From: Escherichia phage MN03
Reading direction: 5' to 3' (one strand)
Sequence record: NC_070990.1
DNA: 64,000 nucleotides
The position numbers and the translations under genes are program-made. Each line of letters begins with the position of its first letter. The first letter of the stretch is position 1. Positions 53,194 to 53,757 of the stretch are shown in pieces. The notes under the pieces are model-generated. The model was not told where the DNA came from, made no database searches, and worked only from the letters and a program-made list of their open reading frames with translations.

Positions 53194-53757
53194 TTAGTAA
53201 GACACGTCACCACTTGAATGGGACATGTTGCTCTTGACGAAGTAGCAATACTTGCCAAGACCTTCATTAATCTCTTGAAGCATACTCTGATCAACAGGGT
53301 AGGTGGCTAAATCACCATCAAACTCATCCATCTTCTCAATAATACACATCAAGGTCATGCACATATCAGAGAGCATACCGTCCATATCTAGGTCAGCATT
53401 ACCCTCTGAGAACCAAGCATGAGAAAGATAGTTAGCTGCTGTAGCGTCCACTTTAACGCAGTGGTAACGCATACGTTCAGCAATACGATCTCCTACCTGT
53501 CGTGCGTAATCTTCCAGCTCATCAAACATACCATGAACACCCTGAAATCCTGCACCAGAGACGTTCCAGTGGTAGTTTTTAGCTTTGATATGCAAGAGTT
53601 CCATGTTAGCTTGTAAGCAGCTCAGGATGTGTTCTAGGCTGTTTGCACTAATCATGCCTTGCATTGTTTCAAGGCGAGAGATTGAAAGATCAGACCGGTC
53701 TAACATACTATAGCTGTCACGACCAATCTCAGGTAAATCAAAGACATTCTTATGCAT
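53194..53757 (-). CDS. Dps / ferritin-like protein (~187 aa)
   Basis: NYHWNVSGAGFQGVHGMFDELEDYARQVGDRIAER matches the Dps HWNV.G..F...H..F.E......D.IAER core; start uncertain (ORF track 53805). Confidence 0.55.
   Translation of the reverse strand: MHKNVFDLPEIGRDSYSMLDRSDLSISRLETMQGMISANSLEHILSCLQANMELLHIKAKNYHWNVSGAGFQGVHGMFDELEDYARQVGDRIAERMRYHCVKVDATAANYLSHAWFSEGNADLDMDGMLSDMCMTLMCIIEKMDEFDGDLATYPVDQSMLQEINEGLGKYCYFVKSNMSHSSGDVSY

Follow-up and report, generated by a model that had tools for sequence, protein, structure and literature searches.

The gp68-dps locus and its virus

Here we report on a locus in a 64,000-nt stretch of Escherichia phage MN03 DNA (NC_070990.1; hereafter the window), in which an open reading frame at 53194..53757 on the minus strand encodes a Dps-family mini-ferritin of 187 aa and 21.2 kDa, the ortholog of gp67 of phage phiEco32. 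The window belongs to a Kuravirus (phiEco32-like), a lytic prolate-headed podophage of E. coli, and shares 99.9% identity with phage phiEc_1 over 3 kb; the protein is 99.5% identical to phiEco32 gp67 (ABY52868). The phiEco32 record (EU330206, 2008) annotates gp67 as "DNA-binding protein; member of the Dps family"; the gene has therefore been known under this annotation since 2008 and is not a discovery. We show that its product belongs to the Dps family, that the ferroxidase site is intact and invariant, that selection on the gene is purifying, and that the locus has an operon-like anatomy and a conserved neighbourhood. The points added to the earlier annotation are the acidic charge of the protein, the selection acting on its gene, a gp68-dps unit with a putative gp36 promoter and a hairpin, and a setting among nucleotide-synthesis genes.

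The reading frame runs from an ATG at 53757 to a stop codon, counted in, at 53194, with a GGAG lying 9 nt 5' of the ATG. An alternative TTG-started frame reaching to 53805 would overlap the gene upstream. The N-terminal sequence MH(K/N)NVFDLP is kept in homologs down to approximately 53% identity; this conservation favours 53757 as the genuine start. The GenBank coding sequence for gp67 in phiEco32, the reference phage, is also 564 nt long. Residues 1-40 of the product form a lineage-specific N-terminal extension, and residues 41-176 the predicted Dps four-helix bundle with its ferroxidase ligands.

The gene is under strong purifying selection. Its pN/pS is 0.016 against phiEco32, and 0.157 against the 82%-identical ortholog of phage ECBP2, a comparison in which synonymous sites are saturated and which gives 0.097 for the core (residues 41-176) and 0.36 for the N-terminal extension. 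A spurious reading frame, or a chance occurrence of Dps-like motifs, was considered and is ruled out by this selection together with published peptides and the HMM and fold evidence given below.

A preliminary description of this DNA had called the gene unusual for a phage to carry. This holds as a matter of frequency, with homologs in just 137 of 50,697 phage records; it does not hold as a matter of novelty, given the 2008 annotation and the further phage Dps genes that have been published, including reports from Lactobacillus phages and gut phages (PMC6669764, PMC8008677). Members of the clade within the 137 records come from phages of Escherichia (90), Aeromonas (11), Proteus (8), Salmonella (7), Cronobacter (6) and Shigella (3), and the remaining records are a few remote matches in Streptomyces and Synechococcus phages. 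The SU10 ortholog (CDS67) is among the few genes common to all five prolate podophages then sequenced, and was identified in mass spectrometry through 6 peptides at 35.8% coverage and a predicted mass of 21.2 kDa (PMC4281155). Expression of the protein during infection has thus been shown in the literature for SU10. The homolog of Proteus phage Privateer was detected in purified virions, and its function was described there as unverified (PMC7881722). We found no experimental study, biochemical or genetic, of any phage Dps in the literature searched.

The placement of this gene in a lytic phage, as first described, agrees with the absence of an annotated integrase or repressor in phiEco32 and with the absence of the locus from host DNA: a search of 5,426 complete E. 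coli genomes returned no DNA match to the gp68-dps locus. Both observations fit a virus that is strictly lytic and a locus not recently taken from the host. Recent acquisition of host dps was rejected as an origin, since the protein resembles E. coli Dps only marginally (E=0.17) and no DNA match exists among the E. coli genomes.

At least 12 records of Kuravirus and related phages, ES17, DE5, IME267, EcoN5 and 172-1 among them, call this reading frame "integrase". The label is an error; it is ruled out by the Dps fold and by the presence of a ferritin domain as the sole domain of the protein. The mislabel matters in practice, since it could wrongly flag lytic therapeutic phages as temperate.

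Fold and iron-site residues of the protein

The gp67 ortholog almost certainly belongs to the Dps family. The core motifs on which the preliminary description relied (YHWNVSGAGFQGVHGMFDELEDYARQVGDRIAER) are present in the protein, where they read YHWNVSGAGF...VHGMFDE...GDRIAER. The HMM search suggested at that time returned the Pfam family Ferritin (PF00210) at 31.1 bits against a cut-off of 24.5 (E=2.5e-7), in an alignment spanning residues 55-108 only, and PHROG 3636 matched the protein end to end (E=3e-55). When PDB sequences were searched with phmmer, 59 of the 60 matches at E<=1 were Dps proteins, and the remaining one was an NTF-2-like protein at E=0.59; the best matches were M. smegmatis Dps2 and B. 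subtilis MrgA, both at approximately 3e-9 (top E=2.7e-9).

Structure prediction, likewise proposed as a check, gave a Dps four-helix bundle with a short BC helix (AlphaFold2, Foldseek). The AlphaFold2 model, a monomer built on 16 homologs, has a mean pLDDT of 79.8, rising above 90 through most of the core. Its bundle helices span residues 41-65, 72-98, 125-150 and 154-176, with the short BC helix at 107-112 and an extra helix at 18-37 ahead of the bundle. All of the best 50 Foldseek matches in the PDB are Dps or Dps-like proteins, the closest at an rmsd of 1.3-1.6 Å over approximately 140 columns. B. anthracis Dlp-2, at an rmsd of 1.3 Å, and S. aureus Dps, with a TM-score (normalised to target length) of 0.90, are among these 50. 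A classical 24-subunit ferritin or a bacterioferritin was considered and rejected, as the best matches in both sequence and fold are Dps or Dps-like proteins and the model has no C-terminal fifth helix.

The ferroxidase ligands H63, H75, D79, D90 and E94, together with W64, do not vary among 16 homologs with identities as low as 48%. Their spacing comprises a first His with the conserved Trp adjoining it, a second His 12 residues on within an H-x3-D/E motif, and a D-x3-E motif 11 residues further. H63/W64/H75/D79/D90/E94 align to H51/W52/H63/D67/D78/E82 of E. coli Dps and to H31/W32/H43/D47/D58/E62 of Listeria Fri; the numbering of both reference sequences agrees with that published. Among more distant relatives, 7-11, Privateer, LAh_6 and metagenomic representatives retain the ligands as well, except that the position of D79 holds Q in P0032 and E in P0033. 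In sequence, in predicted fold and in ferroxidase residues the protein is a Dps mini-ferritin, in agreement with the original assignment of the protein as Dps/ferritin-like.

Within this family the protein stands apart. The NCBIfam Dps equivalogs score far under their cut-offs (NF006975, 34.9 vs 114 bits; NF041388, DpsA, 32.6 vs 170 bits), and a HMMER search of 1.84 billion representatives yielded 651 matches at E<1e-3, 13 of which reached E<1e-10. Because the equivalog scores are so low and close matches so few, the sequence places the gp67 ortholog in a divergent, largely phage-specific branch of Dps and not as an equivalog of the named bacterial proteins.

Two further features were observed in Kuravirus-type Dps sequences. 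Within residues 18-37 an S-x-x-R-L-E/D-x-M motif is conserved, with R28 invariant, and metagenomic relatives down to 38% identity show a related S-x-G-R-L/M-D/E-x-M form. Helix C (residues 128-138, MLSDMCMTLMC) is rich in Met and Cys, and the whole protein contains 15 Met and 5 Cys. We know of no role in Dps proteins for either the N-terminal motif or a Met/Cys-rich helix C.

The gp68-dps unit and its surroundings

Upstream of dps, at 53750..54079 on the minus strand, lies the ortholog of phiEco32 gp68, a basic protein of 109 aa (pI 8.8; phrog_10984) that is the likely co-expressed partner of Dps. The gp68 stop overlaps the dps start by 8 nt. The gene has a pN/pS of 0.093, and its product gave no match in Pfam. 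Homologs, recognisable at BLAST E values of 1e-14 to 1e-17 and all of them basic (pI 8.8-10.1), are found directly upstream of dps in ECBP2, Cronobacter phage GAP52, Proteus phage Privateer, Aeromonas phage LAh_6 and two metagenomic contigs, while in Salmonella phage 7-11 the homolog is four genes from dps and adjoins thioredoxin. The gp68 family, present in 129 phage records, mirrors the distribution of the Dps clade with the same genus counts (Escherichia 90, Aeromonas 11, Proteus 8, Salmonella 7, Cronobacter 6, Shigella 3). Shared ancestry accounts for this co-occurrence; the retention of adjacency and of the start/stop overlap across homologs of 31-45% identity suggests a functional link between gp68 and Dps. 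The AlphaFold2 model of gp68 is a small SH3/Tudor-like beta-barrel of low confidence (pLDDT 63), and comparison of this model with PDB structures returned nothing significant (best E=9e-3).

A gp36 promoter-like motif, AAATGTATA (54119..54127, minus strand), sits in the 72-nt gap upstream of gp68. It differs by one mismatch from tAATGTAtA, the consensus recognised by gp36, the phage sigma factor of phiEco32. The motif AAATGTATA is identical in phiEco32 and in ECBP2, a member of a different genus (Suseptimavirus). Matches to the gp36 motif across the whole window number 23 where 19.5 are expected, which is no enrichment over chance, and the assignment of this copy as a promoter thus rests on its position and on the literature. 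As summarised in PMC8948821, gene 68 is among six phiEco32 genes with an experimentally located gp36-dependent promoter ahead of them, and the replication and nucleotide-metabolism cluster belongs to the middle class.

At the other end of the pair, immediately 3' of the dps stop codon, is a terminator-like hairpin of 11 bp (53159..53187, minus strand). Its 67-nt context folds at -18.5 kcal/mol (z = -1.97) and its T-tract is weak; the stems are identical in ECBP2, and the loop differs. The two genes therefore appear, from these sequence features, to form a unit that consists of promoter motif, gp68, dps and putative terminator hairpin. The gp68-dps unit is kept across three phage lineages.

The pair always lies amid genes for dNTP synthesis. 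Those in the window encode ThyX, a flavin-dependent thymidylate synthase (gp64 ortholog; 51621..52277, minus strand), thioredoxin (gp65 ortholog; 52293..52568, minus strand) and dCTP deaminase. Thioredoxin adjoins gp68-dps in GAP52, Privateer and the metagenomic contig L009, and Thy1/ThyX adjoins dps in 7-11 and contigs L009 and L011. NrdD and/or NrdG, of the oxygen-sensitive anaerobic ribonucleotide reductase, occur near dps in GAP52, LAh_6 and the metagenomic contigs L009 and L011. This last association is what would be expected if gp67 were not an antioxidant and served instead as an iron store or donor for iron-dependent enzymes of dNTP synthesis, whether of phage or host, such as the Fe-S activase of the anaerobic reductase. 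However, no NrdD was found in the window or in phiEco32, whether by tblastn (E<=1) or in the annotation, yet dps is under strong purifying selection there, and characterised Dps proteins mainly detoxify. We consider a donor role very improbable.

Several other genes around the locus deserve description. A stand-alone ATP-cone-like protein of approximately 90-100 aa is encoded directly 3' of dps in three distant prolate podophages, namely 7-11 (3911-4210 of L002), Privateer (3898-4194 of L003) and LAh_6 (3929-4201 of L004); in GAP52 a full NrdD occupies the same position after dps, and the window contains no counterpart of the ATP-cone protein. Three paralogous genes for proteins of 65-69 aa (gp69-71, phrog_4939; 54152-54361, 54361-54570 and 54570-54767, minus strand) stand in tandem immediately upstream of the region with the gp68 promoter motif. 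A small hydrophobic, membrane-like protein (phrog_9296) is encoded twice, by tandem paralogs between dps and thioredoxin (52759-52944 and 52954-53133, minus strand), just one of which (gp66) is annotated in the phiEco32 record. Further upstream, the gp73 ortholog (phrog_12715; 55311-56624, minus strand) is a 437-aa nucleotidyltransferase with a weak match to the head domain of poly(A) polymerases and CCA-adding enzymes.

Charge, iron chemistry and possible roles in infection

Some Dps proteins bind DNA through flexible N- or C-terminal tails rich in Lys and Arg, or through a basic surface. The gp67 ortholog is acidic (pI 4.7, net charge -15); its N-terminal tail (residues 1-40) contains 4 K/R vs 6 D/E, and its C-terminal tail contains no K/R. 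The compaction or protection of DNA named in the preliminary description therefore finds no support in the sequence of this acidic protein as far as it would act by binding, and because Lys/Arg-rich tails are absent the label "DNA-binding protein" is unsupported as well. Short basic N-tails are present in the homologs of 7-11 (MLGARPKRP), Privateer (5 K/R in 16 residues) and LAh_6.

These homologs bear on the reading of gp67 as mainly a DNA-binding or compacting protein, which would coat or condense phage or host DNA either directly or through gp68 as an adaptor. The "DNA-binding protein" annotation, the label in most database records, is found in phiEco32, in many relatives and in PHROG 3636, although such labels derive from homology and not from experiment. 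The examined Grimontviridae and Lahexavirus homologs have short basic N-tails like that of E. coli Dps, and the homologs of gp68 are always basic, translationally coupled to dps and of the same phyletic distribution. In Kuravirus-type sequences, moreover, Dps and gp68 are both N-terminally extended, unlike their Grimontviridae homologs. Nevertheless, gp67 itself, with its pI of 4.7 and charge of -15, has none of the known DNA-binding determinants of Dps, and the fold of the proposed adaptor was modelled at low confidence (pLDDT 63), with a best structural match at E=9e-3. On balance, we regard a mainly DNA-binding role as rather unlikely.

An antioxidant mechanism, the removal of Fe2+ and H2O2 during phage DNA synthesis, is in our view the most likely role of gp67, and we hold it at somewhat better than even confidence. 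For this protein we infer dodecamer assembly, ferroxidase chemistry and a protective role. By homology, twelve subunits would assemble into a hollow shell, with ferroxidase sites forming between paired subunits. These sites would bind Fe2+ and oxidise it preferentially with H2O2, as characterised Dps proteins do, and the resulting Fe3+ would be deposited inside the shell, so that both Fenton reactants would be removed from the infected cell. Probably made together with gp68 from the putative gp36 middle promoter, within the block for replication and dNTP synthesis, gp67 would most likely protect replicating phage DNA and nearby redox-sensitive nucleotide-synthesis enzymes from damage by iron and peroxide. 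The adjacency of ThyX and Dps might have a local cause as well, since flavoenzymes of the ThyX type can release H2O2 when exposed to air. The antioxidant and iron-related roles put forward in the preliminary description are plausible.

Such protection would matter after the phage has shut down the stress response of its host. In a different lytic infection, host dps, catalase and peroxiredoxin ranked with the most strongly induced genes (PMC7354516), and gp79 of phiEco32 inhibits host sigma70 transcription (PMC8948821); with that transcription shut down, the host could not mount a response of this kind. Phage 7-11 brings about no host transcription shut-off, yet it has kept its dps gene (PMC8948821), and replacement of a silenced host Dps is therefore not the whole story.

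Further points weigh against the antioxidant reading: the coverage of PF00210 is partial, the equivalog scores are low, and the Privateer homolog was found in CsCl-purified virions. The last of these hints at a role outside the cytoplasm. On a virion-associated reading, gp67 would reside in or on the prolate capsid like the ferritin cargo of encapsulins, where it would guard packaged DNA against iron-catalysed damage or enter the cell along with the genome. Approximately 10 phage proteins, the Privateer homolog included, were identified by mass spectrometry of virions purified through CsCl step and equilibrium gradients (PMC7881722). An iron-loaded shell (approximately 255 kDa of protein plus 45 kDa of ferric oxide) would, however, by rough arithmetic have a buoyant density of approximately 1.47 g/mL and could co-band with phage. 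The SU10 ortholog was likewise detected in a phage preparation; this material had just been PEG-precipitated and also contained DNA polymerase and thioredoxin, and its authors themselves caution that products of middle genes may be present (PMC4281155). A cryo-EM and virion mass spectrometry study of SU10, with its supplements, makes no mention of the Dps protein.

The same sigma factor drives the dps gene and the late genes (PMC8948821), but dps lies in the replication cluster, outside the structural module, and a dodecamer of 9 nm would be too large to exit through the tail. Dps-fold domains were also found by Foldseek among viral models, inside long proteins of uncultured Caudovirales annotated as prohead proteases (BFVD A0A6J7XDU5, A0A6J7WPK9 and A0A6J7WIS1). 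The embedded domains suggest that some phages deliver a Dps domain into the prohead. Taken together, we think a virion-associated role for gp67 quite unlikely. A Dps-fold domain was additionally observed in gp346 of Bacillus phage G (G3MA87).

A combination of these elements can also be envisaged. Acidic Dps and its co-conserved partner, the basic, SH3-like gp68, might constitute a bipartite system peculiar to prolate podophages; gp68 would tether the shell to DNA or to the capsid and some of the Dps would travel with the virion, as is hinted at by the mass spectrometry of CsCl-purified Privateer and by the fusions of Dps domains to prohead proteases. We offer this proposal as a speculation and hold it to be decidedly unlikely. 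If true, it would be the phage counterpart of ferritin-loaded encapsulins.

Kuraviruses are collected as therapeutic phages of E. coli, and dps is among their few universally conserved non-structural genes. If, in keeping with the antioxidant reading, gp67 blunts damage by iron and peroxide, it would present a clear case of a lytic phage with an oxidative-stress defence of its own, and such protection might affect phage performance in oxygenated, iron-rich or inflamed settings. The labels now widespread in databases are misleading for this gene, "DNA-binding protein" being unsupported and "integrase" wrong.

Comparison with known systems distinguishes what is shared from what is particular to this phage protein. 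The gp67 of phiEco32 (ABY52868) and CDS67 of SU10 are the same gene as that in the window, with 99.5% and approximately 96% identity over 187 residues and the same position and neighbours. The Dps proteins of 7-11, Privateer, GAP52 and LAh_6 are 31-45% identical in the core and share a neighbourhood of gp68-like protein, thioredoxin, ThyX and dCTP deaminase. They are shorter (146-156 aa), with short basic N-tails in contrast to the long acidic extension of gp67, and are often followed by NrdD or the stand-alone ATP-cone protein, neither of which occurs in the window.

Among cellular proteins, Listeria innocua Fri/Dps, B. anthracis Dlp-2, B. subtilis MrgA and M. smegmatis Dps2 (non-DNA-binding) have the same fold, at an rmsd of 1.3-2.6 Å, and share with gp67 the ferroxidase ligands, their spacing and an acidic charge at 19-27% identity. 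Unlike these bacterial proteins, gp67 has a 40-residue N-terminal extension with a predicted helix at 18-37 and the S-x-x-R-L-E/D-x-M motif, has a Met/Cys-rich helix C (DMCMTLMC), is encoded by a phage and is paired with gp68. The ferroxidase residues of E. coli Dps align one-to-one with those of gp67, whereas overall similarity is limited to E=0.17 over approximately 40 residues and gp67 is without the Lys-rich N-tail of the host protein.
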